Part shown: positions 4,480 through 40,565 of the stretch, piece by piece
Position numbering within the stretch: position 1 is the stretch's first letter
Layout: each line of letters begins with the position of its first letter
IMG/VR virus record: IMGVR_UViG_2687453529_000006
Length of the DNA: 40,565 bases
Reading direction: 5' to 3' (one strand)
Source of the DNA: a virus
Lineage: Duplodnaviria > Heunggongvirae > Uroviricota > Caudoviricetes
Made by a program: the position numbers and the translations under genes
Notes under the pieces: model-generated
Told to the model about the DNA's origin: nothing
Seen by the model: the letters and a program-made list of their open reading frames with translations, nothing else
The model's database searches: none

Positions 4480-6824
4480 TTAATACTCTCCCCCATTTGC
4501 GCATCAGTTAATTCTTTATGCCAGATACGCAGATTACGGATATGACCAAAAAGATGATACTCCCCATTAGTGCCCTGCCCTCCAATTCGCAATACTGCCC
4601 GTGGAACAATTGAAGTCCATGTTGTTTTTGCCGCAACAGATAATTCACCATTACATACGGCCTGAACATCTCCATCAGCGCCACAACGTAAGCCTGAAAT
4701 GATTTTCCTCTGGGTTGTTGCCACATATTTATTACACCCTCCCATAGAAATAAAAGGAGAACCGGCATCAGAGAAATTATTACCACGGAATCCATGCGTG
4801 AACAGACCATTTTCCTGATAATCTTTAACATTAAAGATTAATGGTGATTTGCTGGGAGGGATATCCCAGTTTTTATTAACTTCAACAAGAGCACTGAATG
4901 GTAATCGGTGAATATTGTTTCTTACAGGTATTGTCACCATGTCGCTGGAGCGAGTGCCAGGAGCCCCTTCAGTAATGATAAATGACGTCCTGTACGACCC
5001 AATCTCCGCCTGAGGCATCGCAATATCTAACGTAGAGCCATTGGGGATAATACTGATTCCAGGCATCGCCAGGATTTCAAATCTTGAGCTGATTATCATT
5101 TCCTCATCTGCAAAAAGAGTGGCGGTAAACAACCACCATTCACCGACTCTTTCTGCCGTCACCGTCACATTATTTCCATGAACAACATTTCCCGTAACAG
5201 GATCCAGAGCTGCATCTGAATGAAAAACAAACGCACCATTATCAGACATTTTTCCGAACCTTGCACGACACCGGGAATTATCACTTTTCGTCAGACACGA
5301 TATCGTCGTATAAGAACCTGCCGGGCAGGTGTAAGCATCATTCGTGTTTACAGCAATTGCCTGATATCCTTGTGCTGTCGGATTTTCATTAATAACAGTT
5401 ATCCTTCCATAGTTAAACCCATTATCACTGTCGAACGACTCAACAGACACACTACCCGTGTTATTCCATGCTTCTGGTGTATTTGAATTTCTGAAATAGT
5501 TTGTTCTCTGTCCTTCAATCAGCAAACCTTCTCGTTCAAATCGCGGTTCGTCAACTTCAGCAACGGTTAATACACCTGATTTATTAATGTATGTTGCACC
5601 TGATGCGCGTTTGAAGCTAACAACCTTATCGGATGGCATTTTAATAACATCATCACCTACAGTTATTTGCTTATAACCAGGCGAAAAGCCAGCAAGCATA
5701 TCCAGTGAATCGTTAAACGGTATCCACACATCAGGCAGTGGCTGTAAGACATATTTATACGGCTCTGCTGCCTGGCTTGCATACTCTCTCGCTGCGTCTT
5801 CACTTGCTTTTGCAGCCATCTGGCTTGCAGCGGATGCTTTTGCCGAGTTAGTCGCCGCAGTCTCGCTCGCCTTTGCGTTGGTTTCACTGGTTTTTGCAGC
5901 TTTTTGACTGTTGGCTGATGCAGTGGCAGAAGAAGCCGCCGCACTTGCAGAACCAGCTGCAGCACTCTCGCTTTGGGCCGCCGCATCCTGACTGTTTTTC
6001 GCCGCAGTTTCGCTGGCTTTGGCATTCGTTTCGCTGGTCTTCGCTGCCGTCTGGCTGGACTTTGCGTTAGTTTCACTCGTCTTCGCTGCTTTCTGACTGT
6101 TAGCCGCAGCAGTTGCTGATCCAGCTGCTGAAGTCGCAGAATCGGCTGCCGCGCTCTCGCTTTCGGCTGCTGCAACCTGGCTGTTTTTTGCCGCAGTTTC
6201 ACTGGCTTTAGCATTCGTTTCGCTGGTTATCGCTGCCGTCTGGCTGGACTTTGCGTTGGTTTCGCTCGTCTTTGCGGCTGTCTCGCTATTTTTCGCGTTG
6301 GTTTCTGATTTTTTGGCTGCTGTCGCGGAGTTTGCCGATGCAGTCTTTGAGGTCGCTGCCGCCTGTGCACTATTAGCTGCATTCGTTTCTGACGTTTTCG
6401 CCGCGTTCTTCGATGATGCCGCTGCAGTTTCGGATTTCTTTGCCGCCGCTGCGCTCTGAGAGGCGGCTTCGGCGTTGCGTGCCGCTTCTTCCACCATTGC
6501 CTCAAAACGGCGCAATGCCTCCGGCATGACATCATCTTCCGTCATGGCACCGAGAAAATCATTCAGCGTACCTGGTCTGGAGCCTTCATAGACGGTAATG
6601 GTCCCGGCATGTGAAGGCGGAAAACCTTCAACCAGCAGGGTGACGCTGTACTGGCCATACTCAACATCCATGCTGTAACGCCCGGCTTCATCAGGATTTT
6701 CAGAGGCCACCGTGTTCACCAGTACCGTGGTGCTGTTACGCTTTGCCTTCAGTTGAATAGTGCAGTTCTGTATTGGTTTTCCCGCACCATCTTTCAGCAC
6801 ACCTGAGATTTTTACTGCTGCCAT
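4476..6824 (-). CDS. stf: Side tail fibre protein (lambda Stf-like N-terminus, repeat-rich shaft, divergent C-terminal domain)
   Basis: N-terminus from Met3 (MAAVKISGVLKDGAGKPIQNCTIQLKAKRNSTTV...) matches lambda Stf; track ORF begins at an upstream GTG; GGAG RBS before the ATG at 6824. Confidence 0.85.
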   Translation of the reverse strand: MAAVKISGVLKDGAGKPIQNCTIQLKAKRNSTTVLVNTVASENPDEAGRYSMDVEYGQYSVTLLVEGFPPSHAGTITVYEGSRPGTLNDFLGAMTEDDVMPEALRRFEAMVEEAARNAEAASQSAAAAKKSETAAASSKNAAKTSETNAANSAQAAATSKTASANSATAAKKSETNAKNSETAAKTSETNAKSSQTAAITSETNAKASETAAKNSQVAAAESESAAADSATSAAGSATAAANSQKAAKTSETNAKSSQTAAKTSETNAKASETAAKNSQDAAAQSESAAAGSASAAASSATASANSQKAAKTSETNAKASETAATNSAKASAASQMAAKASEDAAREYASQAAEPYKYVLQPLPDVWIPFNDSLDMLAGFSPGYKQITVGDDVIKMPSDKVVSFKRASGATYINKSGVLTVAEVDEPRFEREGLLIEGQRTNYFRNSNTPEAWNNTGSVSVESFDSDNGFNYGRITVINENPTAQGYQAIAVNTNDAYTCPAGSYTTISCLTKSDNSRCRARFGKMSDNGAFVFHSDAALDPVTGNVVHGNNVTVTAERVGEWWLFTATLFADEEMIISSRFEILAMPGISIIPNGSTLDIAMPQAEIGSYRTSFIITEGAPGTRSSDMVTIPVRNNIHRLPFSALVEVNKNWDIPPSKSPLIFNVKDYQENGLFTHGFRGNNFSDAGSPFISMGGCNKYVATTQRKIISGLRCGADGDVQAVCNGELSVAAKTTWTSIVPRAVLRIGGQGTNGEYHLFGHIRNLRIWHKELTDAQMGESIK
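5830..6440. repeat. Imperfect tandem DNA repeats inside stf encoding (S/T)ETNAK(A/S)S-type repeats
   Basis: Repeated units visible at about 21-nt and about 190-nt periodicity (e.g. gccgcagtttcgctggctttggcattcgtttcgctgg... recurs). Confidence 0.7.
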
Positions 6825-7555: not shown

Positions 7556-10500
7556 TCAGCTGATACTGATGCCTGCGGTGGCTTTCTTCATCACCACAAC
7601 CAGCAAATCGCTGATACTTGCTGTGGGATACCAGCCATTTACCAGCCATGCCGATACAGAAAATTCCAGTGTCATGACACCACTGCCTGCAGGCATATCA
7701 ATAACACCCGTATATATCAGCGTATTATCCAGAGCCGTTCGGTTATAAATTTCAGCACCGTTTTTTCGTACTATCAGACGGCATGAGGAGTAGATATCAG
7801 TATGATCTTGCTCATGTTTAGCGCCACTGAATGCCACCGCCGGGATAACAATTTGCCGGTCAAACGGCTGATCGTCATAAACCCTGACGGTAATGGTTCC
7901 TGATGGCCACCGCTCCGGTGCACGGGAGTCCCGGGGGAAAGCTTTGCCCACCGTTTTAACAATATCGCCTTCAATCTGGTTGGCTGACAGTTTTCCCAGA
8001 ATCCGGCAGTTCTGATTAATCGTGACATTGTTGAGCGTCCCGGAGTTCGCATTCACGTTACCGCTGATATCGGCATTTTTCGCCGTCAGCCGCCCGTCCG
8101 GTGTCAGGGAAAATGCCGGAGGATTACCGCCGCTGGTAATGGTGGGAGCCGTCAGGTATTTCAGGAACACTTCGTTCATGAATATCTGATCGCCCTGACC
8201 AACAAACATCGGCTTTGTGTTGCCATTCGCAGGATTAATCATCGCAATCCTGTCTGCCGCCAGCAGCACCTGACTCTGCATGCCGTCAGGGGTGTTTTCA
8301 ATACCGGCACCAATACCCGCGATATAAAGGCGTCCGTCCTGCATCTGCTGCAGCTTCACAGCCCACATGCTGTTCAGGTTATTATTTGTATCAACCTGAA
8401 CCTTCTGTATCTGCTGGATCGCTGCACTCTGGTCTTCCAGTTTCTTATTGACGGTCTGCGTGATTTCATTACTGACATCCGTGATGGACGTTCTGATTTC
8501 CGCCAGGTCAGGCGCAAGCTGACCGTTATCAATCTGCGTCCACAACTCCTGAGCCAGATGGGTTTTCCCTATCTCTCCTTTGAAAAAATCCAGATAGCCG
8601 GATGCATCATCACTCGGCTGGCCAACAGCCCCCACGAATGCCGATTTGCCAACGGTGTTCACACTGCGGATGTAAAAATAATAATCATGGCCCGGCCTGA
8701 TATTGATACTGGCAGCTATCCAGTACAGCGCCGTGCCAAGATAGCGCGCTGTGGTTTCAACCTGTCTGATATCCGCAATCCGCTTTTCCGAGAACCAGAA
8801 TTCAAACTGTACCGTCGGGTCATAAACGGCAAGATGCGGCGTGGCGGTTATCTGAAAATACCCCGGTGTCAGCTCAATCCGCGACGGTGCTGCCGGTGCG
8901 GCAATCCGGAACGATACCGACGCCGGATCGCCCTGCTGCCCCCAGGCATTTGCCGCCCGGACTGTCAGCCTGTAGTTTCCCAACGCCAGTTGCGTGAAGC
9001 GGTATGTGGTTTCCGTCGTCCGGGCCGTGCTGACCAGCCGCTCACTGCCGTCATCCGCTGCCACGGTCAGGCGAAGCATAAAGCTCACGCCCTTCACCAC
9101 CTTCGGCGTGTCCCAGCGCGCCAGTACCTGATATTCCCCGCTGTCTGCGGTGACTTCGGCAGTCAGGTGCTGCACCGCTGGCGGCGTGACACCATTCACC
9201 GTGCCACTCTGGTCGCCGTCAAAGTGCGCCCCGTTATCCACGATGGCCTCTTTTTCCGGCACATGCTGCACGGCGGTGATGGCATACGTGCCGTCGTCGT
9301 TCTCACGGATACTCACACAGCGGAACAGGCGCTGACGCAGCATCGGCAGCTTCAGCCCCCACACGCTGTATTCGGCAACGCCGTCAGGAACACGGCTCAC
9401 TTTTACCTTCACGCCGTCGGTGACGGACTGGACCTCCACGCTCACCGGATTACCCTGCCCGTCAACCAGGCTTATCAGCGTGGTGCCGGAGGATGGCAGC
9501 GTGATTTCACGGTCGAGCGTCAGCGTCCGGGTCTGGCTGTTCACCGCCAGCACGCGCCCGCCAATGCTGATCCCCGCATAGTCATCATCGCAGATTTCAA
9601 TAACATCACCCGGTACATGGCGCAGCCCTTCTGCACCCACGCTGAAGTCCACGGTCTGCGTTTCCAGCAGTTCCGTTTTAATCAGCCACAGCCCGGCGCG
9701 GTGCGCCTGCCCCCGGCTGGTACAGCCAAAGGCATCCATTTTCGTGACGTTACGACCGTAACGGAGAATGGCCTGCGTATCTTCAACAAGCTCTGTCGCC
9801 GTCTCCCAGCCGTTATTCGGGTCAATCCAGTTCACCTCAACGGCATTATGGCGGTCCTTCAGGGCGCTGAAGCTGTAGCGGAACGGCGCGCCATCATCCG
9901 GCATCACCACATTACTGCGGTTATAGGTCCACACCTTATCTGATGGTCGGTCCTGCACGAACGTCAGCGTCTGCCCGTTCCATACCGGCATACAGCGCAT
10001 CGCCGAGCAGAAATCACTGAGCACATCCCACGCCTTACGCTGCGTGGTCAGCCAGGCATTACAGGTGATGCGCGGCTCCGTGCCGCCAAAACCGTCCGGC
10101 ACTGACTGGTCGCAGTACTGGCCGATGACATACAGCGCCCATTTATCCACATCCGCCGCACCAAGACGTTTCCCCATGCCGTAGCGCGGGTGGGTCAGCA
10201 TATCCCACAGACACCAGGCCATGTTGTTGCTGTATGCCGGTTTAAACGTTCCGTCCCAGATACCGCTGTATTGCCGCGTCTGCGGGTTATAATTCGACGG
10301 CACCTGCAGAATACGCCCGCGCAGATGATAATTACGGCTCACCTGCTGGCTGCCGAACTGCTCCGAGTCCACCTGCACGCCGACCAGTGCCGTGTTCGGG
10401 TAGCACTGTTTCACATCGATAATTTCGGTGTATGACGACCAGAGCGTTTTGTTCTGCAGCTGGTCTGTGGTGCTGTCCGGTGTCATCCTGCGCATCCGGA

Positions 10501-16678: not shown

Positions 16679-16705
16679 AAAAAAAACCGCCGAAGCGGTT
16701 TTTGC
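16679..16705 (-). terminator. Intrinsic terminator between the zinc-ribbon gene and the tape measure gene
   Basis: Hairpin aaccgc-ttcg-gcggtt flanked by A-run and T-run (bidirectional form). Confidence 0.55.
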
Positions 16706-28814: not shown

Positions 28815-29567
28815 CTATCGTGTCACTTTTTGCAACTGTAACTCTGCGAATGCTTCTTCCTGCCAGCACTTTGTTACCAGTTTATCAATGACGTCTGCAT
28901 ATCCTTTGTACCACTGATAATCCGTCAGGTCTGGTACCAGCTTCTGGACATGACGTCGTGCCAGTGTGGTCGGTAAACGACTAAACCGATTTCCATTGCA
29001 ACGCCCACAAATCTTATAAACAGGCGCGCCATGAAGCCGGGTTCTTTTTTCATCCAGGACAATGCCTTTACCCTTACACCCTCTGCAAGCCGTGCTGACT
29101 TCTCCCTTACCATGGCAATGCTGACATAATTCCTTCACCCACTCTTCCTTGATAACAGACTCACCGCTTCTGGAGTGTTTCACCACTTCGCGCAATACAT
29201 TATGAAATCCAGTACCAGCACAATGCTCACAGCGAGCCTTACTTGCCGCAGACCTGGAATAATCAGCAAAGGCAAAATTCACAAGGTAAGTGATGATCTG
29301 TAACCGGGTTTCTTCACTCAATTTGTTCAATGTCGGGTTATCCAGTGCCATCGCGTAATTGAGCAGACCTTCAATCGCAAACTGAGGATCCTGAACACCA
29401 ACTTTTGCCAGGAATAAGGCAAACCCAAGCGGTGCTTTCGACTGCACCATCCCCTGCGCAGCCATCACATCCGTAATCGTTAAACCACCCGAGCCTGTCG
29501 CCGGTGCCTCATCGCTCAATTTGGGAGATTTTGGGGAGTAATATTTTGGTAAGGCTTCAAGGTTCAT
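28815..29567 (-). CDS. Q: Late-gene antitermination protein Q (QuuQ-like, CxxC zinc-finger)
   Basis: 250 aa with multiple CxxC pairs; resembles E. coli Qin QuuQ as remembered; directly upstream of lysis genes. Confidence 0.8.
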   Translation of the reverse strand: MNLEALPKYYSPKSPKLSDEAPATGSGGLTITDVMAAQGMVQSKAPLGFALFLAKVGVQDPQFAIEGLLNYAMALDNPTLNKLSEETRLQIITYLVNFAFADYSRSAASKARCEHCAGTGFHNVLREVVKHSRSGESVIKEEWVKELCQHCHGKGEVSTACRGCKGKGIVLDEKRTRLHGAPVYKICGRCNGNRFSRLPTTLARRHVQKLVPDLTDYQWYKGYADVIDKLVTKCWQEEAFAELQLQKVTR

Positions 29568-29580
29568 GCTCGTTCTCCAC

Positions 29581-30577
29581 TTACGCCAGTACGCCTATTG
29601 CCAGCGCACGATCGATAAAACGAAATATCAGCTCCAACTGGGAGCCATACTTCTCTTCAAATGCCACGGTATCCGCATGCAGCTCGTCGTGATGCTTTCT
29701 GCACAAAGGCAACACAAAGAGGTCATGCGCTTTTGTACCCATTCCCCCCCTGACCGTGGCCTATCAGGTGGTGGGGATCATCAGCAGACTTTCCACAACA
29801 TGCACACGGCTGTGTCTTAACCCAGCGCGTGTACTTTTCGTTAACCCAGCGGCGACGTTTGGGGCGTAACATAAAAGACTCCGGCGACTCCGGATCCACT
29901 TTCAGCGCCAGCACCTTTTTCGCTTTATCCTGGATGATGCTGGTGGCAGGAACCGAAGGCACAAGGTCACTTTCCCGGGTGACAGATGGCACAACAGGCT
30001 TCGGTAATCTCAGTGCCTTACGGGCTGCGCTTTCCGGTAAGACATCCGCCAGATCATTACGAACCAGCCACCAGCACAGTTCCGGCATTGTCACAACGTG
30101 ACTGTCATCAAAACCGAGATCCCGACGCACAACAGACAACACCCAGCGGGCACAGTTATCCGTTGCCATTGATTCCAGCCGTTCCGTGAACTGATCGCGC
30201 AGCTGGTTATCGCAGTGCCAGCACAGACGGATTGCGCCCGGCGCGTGTCGCATTGTGGTCATGTTCTCGCTGTGCCAGTCGGAATGAGGCCACTGGCAGC
30301 CTTTTTCACGAAGTAACCAGCTTTCAAGACATTCCACGCCACCAGCACGACGGATCACTGCCTCATTGCGGAACACGGCCCGAACGGCAGGATCATCCGC
30401 CAGCGGTTGTGATGCCGCCGGAACGGCACCACTGGCGAAAGATGAATAACGTTCCGGCTCAGGCTCCAGCAGGACACGCCCCTGCATAAACAGGGGCATC
30501 AGCTCTGAACCTGGTCTGAACAATACGATCCCCATACGCGGGGCAATTTCAGGGGTCAGTAGTGCTCTCACGTTCAC
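29581..30577 (-). pseudogene. DUF968-like (YdfU-like) gene interrupted by a +1 frameshift in a homopolymer run
   Basis: 284-aa ORF stops at ...HLIGHGQGGNGYKSA; the next frame continues MGTKAHDLFVLPLCRKHHDELH...; join lies in a 7-nt C run (plus strand, about 29744-29750). Confidence 0.6.
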
Positions 30578-30578
30578 C

Positions 30579-31388
30579 TCAATGAACGGTATCGAGCAGC
30601 TTTAACAGCTCAGGGAATCGGGATTCGAAGAAATGCGGCTGCGTCTCGCGCGGATTTGCGGGACTGGTGATGTTCTTGCCGAACATGCAACCTTTCGCTG
30701 TCAGCGACCAGAATTTTTTGATGTTGTTAATCGCGGTACGGCTGTATCGTTCGCGCTGCTCGACGATCCCCAGTTTCACCATCTGGTGATATGCCTGATT
30801 AGCCGTCAGGCGTATACCATACTGTTTCAGCAGTGCACTCAGTGACAGTGTCGGGCGACTTGAGCCATCGTGTGCATCAGCAGGAGCATCAATGGCATAG
30901 CGCGGTGCCAGATTCGGTAAGCCAACAGCCTCCTGGAGTTTCTGACAGGCACCAAGCACTGAAGAGTTAGACAGGTTTAATTCCCGGCGCATAAAGTCCA
31001 GCAGAATCACACCAGCCTGCATCTTGTCAGCAGCCTGTCCGGATAATTTTTCCGGTGCGCTGGTTACCATGTCGAAAGTACGGATCACCTTCAGATGGAA
31101 TGACGGGCTGATCCACATTGCATAGGCATACACCAGTTCCTTGCAGACATACGTTCCCCGTTCATTTCCCCCATGAATCACACTCACCGGGTCAACACCC
31201 AAATTCTGGGTGTTGGTCAATTCATGAATAAGCTCAACAGTTTGTTGGCTGGAAAGAAACTTTCCTGGCTCCTTGGTTCTGGCATTTGCACCAGATGCTA
31301 CTGCTGCGCGATGCAGATCGTTCAGGCTGTAACGCCCATAAGCATCACGACGAACTTCAATACCATCAATGACCATCAGATTATTCAT
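30579..31388 (-). CDS. KilA-N domain protein (antirepressor-like)
   Basis: 269 aa; N-terminal region resembles the KilA-N domain. Confidence 0.7.
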   Translation of the reverse strand: MNNLMVIDGIEVRRDAYGRYSLNDLHRAAVASGANARTKEPGKFLSSQQTVELIHELTNTQNLGVDPVSVIHGGNERGTYVCKELVYAYAMWISPSFHLKVIRTFDMVTSAPEKLSGQAADKMQAGVILLDFMRRELNLSNSSVLGACQKLQEAVGLPNLAPRYAIDAPADAHDGSSRPTLSLSALLKQYGIRLTANQAYHQMVKLGIVEQRERYSRTAINNIKKFWSLTAKGCMFGKNITSPANPRETQPHFFESRFPELLKLLDTVH

Positions 31389-36774: not shown

Positions 36775-37137
36775 ATGGCTAGCGAACGCAGTACTGATGT
36801 GCAGGCATTTATCGGGGAGCTGGACGGCGGCGTATTTGAAACCAAAATCGGCGCAGTTCTCAGTGAAGTCGCTTCCGGTGTGATGAACACGAAAACCAAA
36901 GGTAAGGTCTCGCTCAACCTGGAAATCGAACCGTTTGATGAGAACCGTGTGAAAATCAAACACAAACTCTCATATGTTCGCCCAACTAACCGCGGGAAAA
37001 TTTCCGAAGAAGACACCACCGAAACGCCGATGTATGTCAATCGCGGTGGTCGCCTGACTGTTCTGCAGGAAGACCAGGGACAATTACTGACTCTTGCCGG
37101 TGAACCTGACGGAAAACTCCGCGCAGCAGGTCATTAA
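36775..37137 (+). CDS. YfdP-like prophage protein
   Basis: 120 aa from MASERSTDVQAFIGELDGGVF...; GAGGAG RBS; family name from memory. Confidence 0.6.
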   Translation: MASERSTDVQAFIGELDGGVFETKIGAVLSEVASGVMNTKTKGKVSLNLEIEPFDENRVKIKHKLSYVRPTNRGKISEEDTTETPMYVNRGGRLTVLQEDQGQLLTLAGEPDGKLRAAGH

Positions 37138-37202
37138 TATCGTTTTTAATAAACTGATTATTTCTCTCATCACTGAATATTTTTATATAGTGAGGACTTA
37201 TT

Positions 37203-38027
37203 ATGTCTCAGAACTTAGACGCAACCGCAATTAATCAAATCCATGCCCTTATTTCTGCTCAGGGTGTTAATGAAATTATCAGTAAGATTGGTGCCGATGC
37301 TGTGGCATTGCCTGAGAATTTCCGCATTCATGATCTGGAAAAATTTAATTTAAATCGCTTCCGTTTCCGTGGTGCGCTTTCCACTGCCAGCATCGATGAC
37401 TTTACCCGTTATTCTAAAGATCTTGCAGATGAAGGCACCCGCTGCTTTATCGATGCCGATAATATGCGTGCCGTCAGTGTGCTTAACCTAGGTACTATTG
37501 ATGAACCAGGTCACGCAGATAACACCGCCACTCTCAAACTGAAAAAGACAGCACCGTTCTCTGCTCTGTTGTCTGTTAACGGCGAGCGTAACTCCCAGAA
37601 GTCACTGGCAGAATGGATTGAAGACTGGGCCGACTACCTTGTGGGCTTTGATGCTAATGGTGACGCTATTCAGGCAACAAAAGCGGCTGCGGCTGTCCGT
37701 AAAATCACGATTGAAGCAAACCAGGCCGCTGATTTTGAAGATAATGACTTCAGCGGCAAACGCTCCCTGATGGAGTCTGTCGAAGCGAAGACCAAAGACA
37801 TTATGCCAGTGGCATTTGAATTTAAATGCGTTCCGTTTGAAGGCCTGAAAGAACGTCCGTTTAAATTACGCCTCAGCATTATCACTGGCGATCGTCCTGT
37901 ACTGGTTCTGCGCATTATTCAGCTGGAAGCGGTGCAGGAAGAAATGGCTAACGAATTTCGTGATCTGCTTGTTGAGAAATTCAAAGACAGCAAAGTAGAA
38001 ACCTTTATTGGTACTTTCACCGCCTGA
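37203..38027 (+). CDS. YfdQ-like prophage protein (DUF2303-like)
   Basis: 274 aa; resembles E. coli CPS-53 YfdQ as remembered; function unknown. Confidence 0.7.
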
Positions 38028-38037
38028 TTTCATTACT

Positions 38038-38064
38038 GCAAATGCCCCTGCGGGGGCATTTACG
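38038..38064 (+). terminator. Putative terminator after yfdQ-like gene
   Basis: aaatgcccc-tgcg-ggggcattt hairpin; weak T-run. Confidence 0.35.
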
Positions 38065-38148
38065 GAAGCGATAATTTTAACTATTGCCGCCCCTATAAAG
38101 AACCATTAAACAATAACGTGACGTAGCTATTGATAGTAAATGAAGCAC

Positions 38149-38181
38149 TTGCAAAATAATTGCATTGCGTATATATACGCA
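38149..38181 (+). promoter_or_regulatory. Promoter with 16-bp perfect palindrome upstream of the AT-rich membrane-protein gene
   Basis: TTGCAA, 17-nt spacer, TATATA; palindrome TGCGTATATATACGCA spans the -10. Confidence 0.5.
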
Positions 38182-38203
38182 CATGTGTTGTATTACAGCG
38201 ATA

Positions 38204-38998
38204 ATGGTAAAGCAAATGATTAACTCTGAAGCAATTGAGCAACTAATGTGGCTATGGTCCTTATTTGACATTAAATTCTTATCTATTCTTGCCGCTGCCT
38301 TCACTATATATTTTGGCGTGCAAAAAATATCAAAAAAGGTGACAGTGTCGTATTCGACAGATGTAAGTAGAATATATGACATGCATATATCAACCATAAT
38401 CCTGAATAATAAAAGAGATAATGCAATTGCTATATCTTCAATCAATATGGAGGTTGAAGGTAAAGGGATACTACAAGTTATTAAATTTGACTCCCCTCTT
38501 CTTTTAAAGAACTATGATTCTTTAAAAGTTGAACCACCAAAATTTAGCAGCCTTTATAATAATGATGGCGTAGTTAAGTTAGATATTTCTGATAAGTTTC
38601 ATTTTTATATAATCACGACATCTGGAGATGAAATTAAATGTATTTCTGAAAATAAATATGTGGCACCAAACATGGAAAACAAAATAGCTACAGACATAAG
38701 AAAATTTAATGGCATTGTCTTAACAAACAGAATGTCTTATATTTTTTTCTATGCAAATGACAACGGAGAGAAATACTGCATAATAGATGTTTCATTGTTC
38801 ATAAATGGTGACAACCCATTTCATTTTAATTTTTTAAAAGAAGATGAATTAAGAGATTTTTCTAGCATCCTTATTGGTTACGGATATCACCAACGGTTTA
38901 AAAGTTATGCATTGTTTAAAATAGACAACCATCTTGCTCCTTCTTTGGTTTTAAATAAGTCAATGATAGAAAATAATATTATTGAAATGAATAAGTAA
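38204..38998 (+). CDS. Unrecognised low-GC membrane-anchored protein (about 265 aa)
   Basis: Long ORF in a markedly AT-rich block; one N-terminal hydrophobic helix (…FLSILAAAFTIYFGV…); start codon uncertain (track ORF begins at 38165 with TTG). Confidence 0.6.
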   Translation: MVKQMINSEAIEQLMWLWSLFDIKFLSILAAAFTIYFGVQKISKKVTVSYSTDVSRIYDMHISTIILNNKRDNAIAISSINMEVEGKGILQVIKFDSPLLLKNYDSLKVEPPKFSSLYNNDGVVKLDISDKFHFYIITTSGDEIKCISENKYVAPNMENKIATDIRKFNGIVLTNRMSYIFFYANDNGEKYCIIDVSLFINGDNPFHFNFLKEDELRDFSSILIGYGYHQRFKSYALFKIDNHLAPSLVLNKSMIENNIIEMNK

Positions 38999-39034
38999 CT
39001 CACCGGGTGCAGCCGGTTATGATGGAGAAATGAT

Positions 39035-39316
39035 ATGAATACCTTGTTTTTACTGATGGCTGAATTCAATACCCCAAACATTGAACTCTCAGCAGTTAGT
39101 CAAAAATACTTTGGTATGAGTCCAGCCACAGCAGAAGCAAAAGCAAACGCTTGTAAGTTGCCCGTTCCAACATATCGCATCGGCACATCACAAAAAGCAA
39201 AACGTTGCATCAATATTCAGGATCTTGCGGAATATATAGACAAAAGACGAGAAGAAGGACGTATCGAGTGGGAACAGGTCAGAACAGGCAAACAGAAGGG
39301 CAAAGAACATCACTAA
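39035..39316 (+). CDS. PrtN-like small DNA-binding regulator (pyocin-activator/excisionase-like)
   Basis: 93 aa; MNTLFLLMAEF...KLPVPTYRIG... resembles PrtN family as remembered. Confidence 0.7.
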   Translation: MNTLFLLMAEFNTPNIELSAVSQKYFGMSPATAEAKANACKLPVPTYRIGTSQKAKRCINIQDLAEYIDKRREEGRIEWEQVRTGKQKGKEHH

Positions 39317-39317
39317 A

Positions 39318-39350
39318 GAAAAAACCCGCCTAAAGGCGGGTTTTCAAAAA
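39318..39350. terminator. Bidirectional intrinsic terminator
   Basis: acccgcc-taaa-ggcgggt flanked by A-run and T-run; sits between convergent genes. Confidence 0.6.
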
Positions 39351-39363
39351 GCACCAGCTATGA

Positions 39364-39537
39364 TCATGCTGCTTTGCGACGACGAAGCTTACCCTGCTGC
39401 TCTTTACCAGAGACAATAGCGTGAGTGAACGCATTAGGAGCAGCCTTCATCAGAACTTCAGCAGCAGCCCCCATACCTGCGAATGCTTTCATTGTGTCGA
39501 ACTTAACCTGTGGCTTGGTTGCTTTTTGATCTTCCAT
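39364..39537 (-). CDS. Small basic protein (57 aa), last gene of the minus-strand accessory operon
   Basis: Below the ORF-track cutoff: MEDQKATKPQVKFDTMKAFAGMGAAAEVLMKAAPNAFTHAIVSGKEQQGKLRRRKAA; GGAG RBS; terminator immediately downstream. Confidence 0.45.
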   Translation of the reverse strand: MEDQKATKPQVKFDTMKAFAGMGAAAEVLMKAAPNAFTHAIVSGKEQQGKLRRRKAA

Positions 39538-39576
39538 AGAAAACTCCAGAAGCTATACCGAAAAAATTCCTGTTGT

Positions 39577-39996
39577 TTACTCATCATCAATAGATGATAC
39601 GCAATATTTATTTTTAAATTTAAGGTTCTTTGGCGTAACTTCATCAGATATATCAAAACCGTCCAGAATTCTATTGAATGTAGCTTCTGGCATATCATCA
39701 TGAACAGAAATCTCACCCGATCGCTGCTTTCTAACCATGTTATCCACTCGCCAAATTATAGCTTCAGCGTAAACAACATAACTTGGATGCTTGATAAAGC
39801 GATGATCACCAGAATTCAAGACGCAAGACGGATCGTGGGGGACACCATCCTTGATACTAGAAATATTAACAACTAAAACACAATAACAATCGTTAACGGG
39901 GTAATAAACAGGATCATTACAAATCACATGAAGATGATTGCATGGCCCAGTTGGGGCAAGCACAGTTCCTTTCCTGTATGGCTGATAATCCGTCAT
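39577..39996 (-). CDS. Unrecognised 139-aa protein translationally coupled to the PanA-like gene (candidate toxin/effector)
   Basis: Start overlaps upstream stop (ATGA); low GC; contains an R-x6-H stretch (RSGEISVH). Confidence 0.6.
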   Translation of the reverse strand: MTDYQPYRKGTVLAPTGPCNHLHVICNDPVYYPVNDCYCVLVVNISSIKDGVPHDPSCVLNSGDHRFIKHPSYVVYAEAIIWRVDNMVRKQRSGEISVHDDMPEATFNRILDGFDISDEVTPKNLKFKNKYCVSSIDDE

Positions 39997-40565
39997 GATA
40001 ATTGCAAAGAAAATTCCTTAAGTTTCTGAGATTCTTCCATTTTGCCAATTATACGATTAGCCTCATCCTCGCTTTTACCCTCACTGATCAGCATTTCTTT
40101 CAGGTCTATAGGCTTACGAGAATTGCCAGAATTATGCCACTCTGGACAAACGCTTTCTAAATGCGTCATGTTTGCGAGATCAAATCGGTTCATATGCCCA
40201 TACAGAGAATAGATTTCATCTAAAATCCGGATATCTGCACGGCTCAACTCATCAAAGACCTCGTCTGCATCCATTTCCCTCGGATCTGAACGCAACAACA
40301 CATCATGCCCGTTCGTCTCTATCAAGTTGTACCAGTAGTCACCAATGCCTTCAGCCTTACCACGAATCAAGTTCAGCGTATTCGACATGACTGGACCAAA
40401 TTTCATAGAGTAAAGACTATCTTCGCCGATCATCCTGCCATGCTTCAAAATCGACTTGCGGTTAGACAGATAGAGCAGCTTCATCAATTTCAGATATGCC
40501 ATGCGCCCACCTCGCTTAAGAAGTAGGTATGCAGCCATTTGAGCTACTTTTTCTTCGCAAAACAT
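39993..40565 (-). CDS. Panacea-domain (DUF4065, PanA/GepA-like) protein, N-terminus probably beyond the window
   Basis: ...AYLKLMKLLYLSNRKSILKHGRMIGEDSLYSMKFGPVMSNT... resembles the Panacea domain core as remembered; ORF reaches the window edge. Confidence 0.6.
   Translation of the reverse strand: MFCEEKVAQMAAYLLLKRGGRMAYLKLMKLLYLSNRKSILKHGRMIGEDSLYSMKFGPVMSNTLNLIRGKAEGIGDYWYNLIETNGHDVLLRSDPREMDADEVFDELSRADIRILDEIYSLYGHMNRFDLANMTHLESVCPEWHNSGNSRKPIDLKEMLISEGKSEDEANRIIGKMEESQKLKEFSLQLS

Follow-up and report, generated by a model that had tools for sequence, protein, structure and literature searches.

A one-base homopolymer length difference splits a DUF968/YdfU-family gene in a lambdoid E. 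coli prophage sequence

Introduction

DUF968 has been placed in the His-Me finger (HNH) nuclease superfamily, in group 7 with DUF1364/YbcO (PDB 3g27), and the genes of this group have RusA, Q, and antirepressor genes as neighbors (Jablonska et al. 2017, PMC5714182). A zinc-finger HNH motif has also been described for DUF968 proteins (Curtis et al. 2014, PMC4118853). Here we describe a gene of this family in the window, i.e., the whole 40,565-nt stretch of viral DNA that was analyzed. The window gene has in common with two group 7 members, YdfU of the Qin prophage and YbcO of the DLP12 prophage (PDB 3g27), its Pfam family and a Cys/His HNH-type motif, and the neighborhoods are of the same kind (RusA, antiterminator Q, and antirepressor-like genes). 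It differs from them in having an extra N-terminal domain of ∼160 aa (PHROG 11007); 3g27 was not matched directly by phmmer, and the function of the subfamily is putative.

Closer relatives are found in phages mEp460, SfV (orf45), SfII, SfIV, cdtI, Stx2c-converting phages, and PhiR47_1, where the DUF968 region is 97-99.8% identical in nucleotide sequence. These homologues are annotated as HNH endonuclease, YdfU family, or hypothetical, they sit just upstream of Q where the match reaches Q, and they lie in mosaic phages with structural modules unlike those of the window. Their top full-length matches are 1400 nt long compared to 1401 nt for the query, as expected for a run of six G residues (G6) in place of the seven (G7) found here. 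The closest counterpart of all is WP_024946498.1, encoded by an intact 990-nt CDS in strains such as FDAARGOS_497, 500010, 3150, and MSB1_8B, for which the nucleotide sequence is identical to that of the window save for one G. The neighbors (RusA and KilA-N upstream, Q downstream), the prophage, and the integration site of these strains are also those of the window; however, the relatives possess G6 and a single 990-nt ORF, whereas the window possesses G7 and a split ORF.

Results

Prophage context of the DUF968 gene

Read as its reverse complement, the whole window corresponds to a complete lambdoid prophage inserted at dusA in E. coli, and it aligns end to end with positions 1879138-1919702 of NZ_CP033850.1. 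Some 25 complete genomes, which come from several countries and hosts, have a nearly unchanged copy of this prophage, with G6 in all of those checked. On the coding strand the genes follow each other as LexA-like, RusA, KilA-N, DUF968, antiterminator Q, and lysis genes, in which the RusA - KilA-N - DUF968 - Q segment corresponds to a nin-like region upstream of Q. The genes flanking DUF968 are as follows.

30579..31388, minus strand: KilA-N domain gene, immediately upstream (ORF list; annotation of relatives)
28815..29567, minus strand: antitermination protein Q gene, immediately downstream (ORF list; annotation of relatives)

Two host genes, dusA and pspG, are also included at the low-coordinate end of the window. 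Each end of the window falls on a CDS boundary in the annotation of the relatives (next to qorA at one end and at the start of a Panacea-domain gene at the other), resembling the cuts made by provirus-prediction tools.

A G7 run divides the gene between two frames

The minus strand of the window contains a G7 run at 29744-29750 (C7 on the plus strand), where the coding strand reads ...CAC GGT CAG GGG GGG AAT GGG TAC AAA AGC GCA TGA. The features of the divided gene are listed here.

29581..30571, minus strand: DUF968/YdfU-family gene (His-Me finger, HNH-like), frameshifted (ORF list, Pfam, PHROG, RefSeq relatives)
29744..29750, minus strand: G7 homopolymer, for which the intact state is G6 (CAG GGG GGA = Gln-Gly-Gly) (alignment to four near-identical genomes)
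29723..29725, minus strand: premature TGA stop in the shifted frame (sequence and ORF list)
29581..29742, minus strand: 53-aa ORF in the +1 frame, native residues 277-329 (ORF list; Pfam DUF968 positions 122-171, E=9.6e-24)

The long ORF (30577..29723, minus strand) ends in ...HLIGHGQGGNGYKSA followed by the stop. It comprises 284 aa when counted from the first GTG, an alternative upstream start at 30577, or 282 aa when counted from the GTG at 30571, the start used by RefSeq in the relatives. In the latter form the truncated product consists of 276 native residues and six foreign ones (NGYKSA). Overlapping its end in the +1 frame is the 53-aa ORF (29742..29581, minus strand), which begins with MGTKAHDLFVLPLCRKHHDELH... 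and contains the second half of the HNH motif (LC-RKHH-DELH) together with the C-terminal helix region. The gene as a whole spans 991 nt in the window compared to 990 nt in intact relatives. Deletion of one G from the G7 run yields ...GHGQGGMGTKAHD... and a 329-aa protein, in agreement with the natural continuation that the initial annotation had proposed for a run one base shorter. The broader proposal of that annotation, a DUF968-like gene split by a one-base homopolymer frameshift, is borne out by the sequence, the ORFs, the Pfam matches, and relatives that are one G shorter.

The two frames encode one domain

The repaired 329-aa protein matched the Pfam DUF968 profile (PF06147) with 271.9 bits (cut-off 27.8; E=3e-81) over positions 2-171 of 171. 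When the two ORFs were compared separately, the long fragment scored 175.8 bits over profile positions 2-125 and the short one 84.8 bits over positions 122-171. The repaired protein also matched PHROG 96, labeled 'HNH endonuclease' by annotation rather than experiment, from end to end (E=6.5e-177). In a public collection of ∼15 billion proteins, the exact repaired protein occurs on at least 1000 contigs and belongs to a cluster of 9520 members, and the exact truncated proteins, in both start versions, are absent from the same collection. All of the homologues retrieved from IMG/VR by protein similarity (80/80) are encoded by one uninterrupted ORF of 329 aa or more. A single indel restores both the frame and full identity to intact single-ORF homologues, as in the class of frameshift pseudogenes and artefacts. 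The two frames are two halves of one domain and no chance juxtaposition, because the fragments match DUF968 positions 2-125 and 122-171 separately.

A natural arrangement of two genes, in which ...NGYKSA is the true C terminus of the protein and the 53-aa ORF forms a gene of its own, is suggested by nothing except the ORF list. The Pfam profile crosses the junction without a break, each of the 80 homologues has one ORF, and the last six residues of the long ORF are out-of-frame residues found in no homologue. We give this arrangement practically no credence, and regard it as refuted by a domain that spans the junction and by homologues with a single ORF. The initial annotation had named homologues that end here, with a downstream frame that is not conserved, as the finding that would speak against a frameshift; the homologues are intact instead, and the downstream frame encodes the conserved C-terminal third of the Pfam domain.

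The break falls within the HNH-type motif

The frameshift cuts the putative nuclease motif in two.

29677..29806, minus strand: Cys/His nuclease motif region (motif positions; HNHc_6 partial match; PMC5714182)

The motif comprises C256-A-C-C, D265-P-H-H, C290-R-K-H-H, and E296-L-H, with the frame lost after G276, between the His-His pair and the second Cys/His cluster. The repaired protein thus contains the His-Me finger/HNH pattern CxxC ... (D/E)xHH ... polar residue ... CxxH/C ... H. Residues 253-310 matched Pfam HNHc_6 with 25.5 bits, just below the cut-off of 26.6, and the motif pattern lined up with the IscB HNH domain at a non-significant E=1.7. A search for a solved structure by sequence (phmmer) returned only non-significant zinc-finger and IscB-HNH matches and did not recover 3g27 (YbcO). 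In the 282-aa product the CxxC and the His-His pair are retained, but the second zinc-ligand pair and the final metal-binding His are gone, and half of the zinc and metal ligands would thereby be missing. The C-terminal helices are likewise lost. If the extra base is real, the gene as written would be a null allele and the truncated protein predicted to be inactive, because the HNH (His-Me finger) motif is interrupted by the break.

The N-terminal ∼160 aa of the protein (window positions 30100-30571) lie outside the Pfam domain, and residues 2-133 match PHROG 11007, of unknown function. A second stretch rich in Cys and His (CQWPHSDWH...LCWHCDNQL) occurs in this part and resembles a further zinc-binding element or a degenerate HNH-like one.

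We also considered the effect of the break on the downstream gene. The Q gene starts with an ATG located 13 nt past the native DUF968 stop and is preceded by its own GGAG Shine-Dalgarno sequence. The 159 nt between the premature stop and the Q start are G-rich rather than C-rich (48 G and 32 C), and a terminator-like hairpin lies at 29647-29629, within the native coding sequence. These features give no strong reason to expect polarity on Q, and any such effect would be speculative at most.

Private differences of the window

Comparison of the window with four near-identical genomes over all 40.5 kb revealed three substitutions and two one-base indels private to the window, with both indels in homopolymers and no other indels anywhere in the comparison. 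The substitutions, at 40130, 37060, and 8631, change the Panacea-domain protein (P146S), YfdP (I96V), and gpJ (E802G), respectively; all three are nonsynonymous transitions. The two that fall within 36800-40400 are absent from all complete genomes, and the 25 best hits lack both. The base of the relatives at 40130 is within a CCTGG (Dcm) site, and the change at 8631 converts GGAGG to GGGGG.

The second private indel is located far from the DUF968 gene.

16679..16686, minus strand: homopolymer shortened from T9 to T8 (A8 on the plus strand), intergenic (alignment to four relatives)

This T run follows a GC hairpin (CCGCTTCGGCGG-T9) to form a terminator-like element between a zinc-ribbon gene and the tape-measure gene. 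T8 was seen in none of the 26 complete genomes carrying the T-run segment, all of which have T9. The T9 run is the longest homopolymer of the ancestral prophage, and the G6 run of DUF968 is one of only three G/C runs of at least 6 nt. Both indels are placed where length-dependent slippage, whether by a cell polymerase or by sequencing chemistry, would put them, and we read this as a signature of length-dependent slippage or miscalling because they hit the longest homopolymer and one of those three G/C runs.

Run-length variants and other broken copies

Among 5426 complete E. coli genomes searched, 1872 hold the 81-nt DUF968 segment, and G7 was found in none of these (no hits at ≥99% identity). 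Nor was G7 found in the phage collection, the GTDB species representatives, or the JGI metagenomes, and an exact scan of IMG/VR for G7 gave no match. The run-bearing stretches of IMG/VR among the matches listed (n=122) had G6 in at least 120 cases and G5 in 2. The glycine codons of the 80 close intact homologues were GGTGGA in 46, GGGGGA in 21, GGAGGA in 3, GGCGGG in 2, and GGTGGG in 1, with 7 not scorable, so that the run is interrupted (GGT/GGA/GGC) in 52 of the 73 that could be scored. The uninterrupted run is thus a minority synonymous variant that is not conserved.

One of the two G5 contigs (L138) is plainly an error-prone assembly: compared with a 99.9% identical relative, it shows four further single-base deletions in G/C runs across 6.6 kb. 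L005, which also reads G5 at this site, has three indels inside the 990-nt gene. The only other G7 that we found belongs to a different allele, 97.8% identical and present on two contigs (L008). At L008:1465-1500 the sequence reads D-P-L-H-L where other alleles read D-P-H-H-L, so that the first His of the His-His pair is lost.

Public E. coli assemblies hold further broken copies of the DUF968 gene, with insertion of an IS3-family element in two (L006 and L011) and an A-run frameshift in another (L009); in a fourth (L004) the ORF is shortened without any indel, presumably by a nonsense mutation. Occasional decay of the DUF968 gene in nature is real, because different lesions break other prophage copies. 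L013 is also among the public E. coli assemblies with a broken DUF968 gene.

Discussion

We interpret the split gene as the result of a non-programmed one-base length change (G6 to G7), private to the window, in an ordinary DUF968/YdfU-type His-Me-finger gene, and we lean, with modest confidence, toward a homopolymer miscall as its source. An error of this kind in sequencing or assembly would have added the G, and the real gene would then be intact. The window is the prophage of the ∼25 complete genomes save for three substitutions and two homopolymer one-base indels, and both indels are private (G7 in 0/1872 and T8 in 0/26 of the genomes holding the respective segment). Precedents at this very run are provided by L138, with five G/C-run deletions in 6.6 kb, and by the G5 of L005, and the exact truncated proteins are nowhere in a protein collection that has the repaired protein on at least 1000 contigs. 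From these observations we infer that the extra base is an artefact rather than a mutation. The window also resembles homopolymer frameshift artefacts and pseudogenes as a general class in that the change is of one base, confined to a single assembly, and accompanied by a second homopolymer indel. Against a miscall, the indel density of the window (2 in 40.5 kb) is low, far below that of L138, and the two changes go in opposite directions (one insertion and one deletion), so that no strong platform signature is apparent. The three private substitutions, moreover, define a genuine private branch where real indels could arise. The lambda nin region is dispensable, and a real loss of the DUF968 gene would probably be tolerated by analogy; DUF968 genes with unquestionably real lesions, the IS insertions of L006 and L011, do occur elsewhere. 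A genuine and recent slipped-strand mutation, in which polymerase slippage added the G and the gene became a pseudogene by neutral decay, possibly in a mismatch-repair-deficient (mutator) host, accordingly has a substantial chance in our estimation, if somewhat short of even. The change lies in a homopolymer, the type of site at which one-base indels most commonly arise in nature. The branch is real and bears three nonsynonymous transitions, which together with the two homopolymer indels resemble the spectrum of a mismatch-repair defect. Other copies have been broken by IS elements (L006, L011), an apparent nonsense mutation (L004), and a frameshift (L009), an independent G7 exists in the different allele of L008, and the prophage is otherwise intact, so loss of the gene is evidently not strongly selected against. 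On the other side, two indels against three substitutions on one branch is an unexpected ratio, although the numbers are small, because real one-base indels are ∼10 times rarer than substitutions in repair-proficient E. coli; in addition, G7 is present in no other genome of the clade and so gives no sign of inheritance. Everything other than an artefact or a real slippage mutation is, taken together, quite improbable.

Those less probable readings would give the G run a function. In evolved phase variation, the run would act as a contingency tract, and slipped-strand mispairing within it would turn the nuclease on and off at high frequency. The frameshift does lie in a G/C homopolymer, and G5 and G7 variants at the run exist in a few public assemblies. 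Contingency loci, however, typically have tracts of ∼8 nt or more, and the ON-state tract here would be only 6 nt, well under that length; the tract is not conserved, being interrupted in 52 of 73 scorable homologues; OFF variants are almost absent (G7 in none of 1872 genomes, and at least 120 G6 to 2 G5 among the IMG/VR matches listed); and at least one of the two G5 cases, L138, is an assembly artefact. We consider phase variation very unlikely. It is disfavored, and largely refuted, because the intact state is only G6, most alleles are interrupted by a synonymous T, and length variants are almost absent. Sequencing error, pseudogene formation, and phase variation were the three causes offered by the initial annotation; the former two remain, and the last is disfavored by the short, interrupted tract and the few variants. 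We allow a slim chance that the G is real and that G6/G7 forms a low-frequency heritable nuclease switch or else, with the T9 to T8 change and the three transitions, marks a mismatch-repair-deficient mutator host that inactivates prophage accessory genes at homopolymers. Programmed recoding, in which the full-length protein would normally be made from the split gene by +1 ribosomal frameshifting or by transcriptional slippage at the G run, seems to us extremely unlikely. Judged from the codons, the native QGGMGTK would be restored exactly if tRNA-Gly slipped by +1 on GGG-G, and a low-level +1 leak in such a mutant is plausible; no sign of selection for this leak was seen at the locus. Every homologue examined, including the 80 retrieved by protein similarity and the near-identical genomes checked, has one frame, neither an in-frame stop nor a rare-codon pause of the kind seen in prfB adjoins the run (the UGA is 7 codons downstream), and the stability of the 101-nt local RNA fold does not exceed that of shuffled controls (z=-0.21). 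As a conserved mechanism, recoding is refuted, for the split arrangement is not conserved.

Our preferred reading, a homopolymer miscall in an intact gene, and a real slippage mutation alike describe a one-base homopolymer frameshift of an ordinary kind, in a gene family already known from prophages, and the G run appears to be no regulatory device. The locus is suitably labeled as 'frameshifted: pseudogene or sequencing error' rather than as two separate proteins, and the 282/284-aa and 53-aa products should not be deposited as distinct families in protein databases. Should the base be real, the window would represent a prophage copy without a putative nin-region nuclease, a natural DUF968 knockout with which the role of these proteins could be probed, although an equivalent one would be trivial to construct in the laboratory.

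Two other regions of the window are of separate note. The gene for a tail-fibre N-terminal-domain protein contains direct repeats at 5856-6280, consisting of two 243-nt stretches that are offset by 189 nt and ∼82% identical, and that encode alanine/serine/lysine-rich repeats. At the prophage end (39577-40565), a small hypothetical gene comes after the gene for the Panacea-domain protein (SocA/PanA-like antitoxin), and the equivalent pair in phage PhiR47_1 is annotated as PanA antitoxin and PanT toxin.
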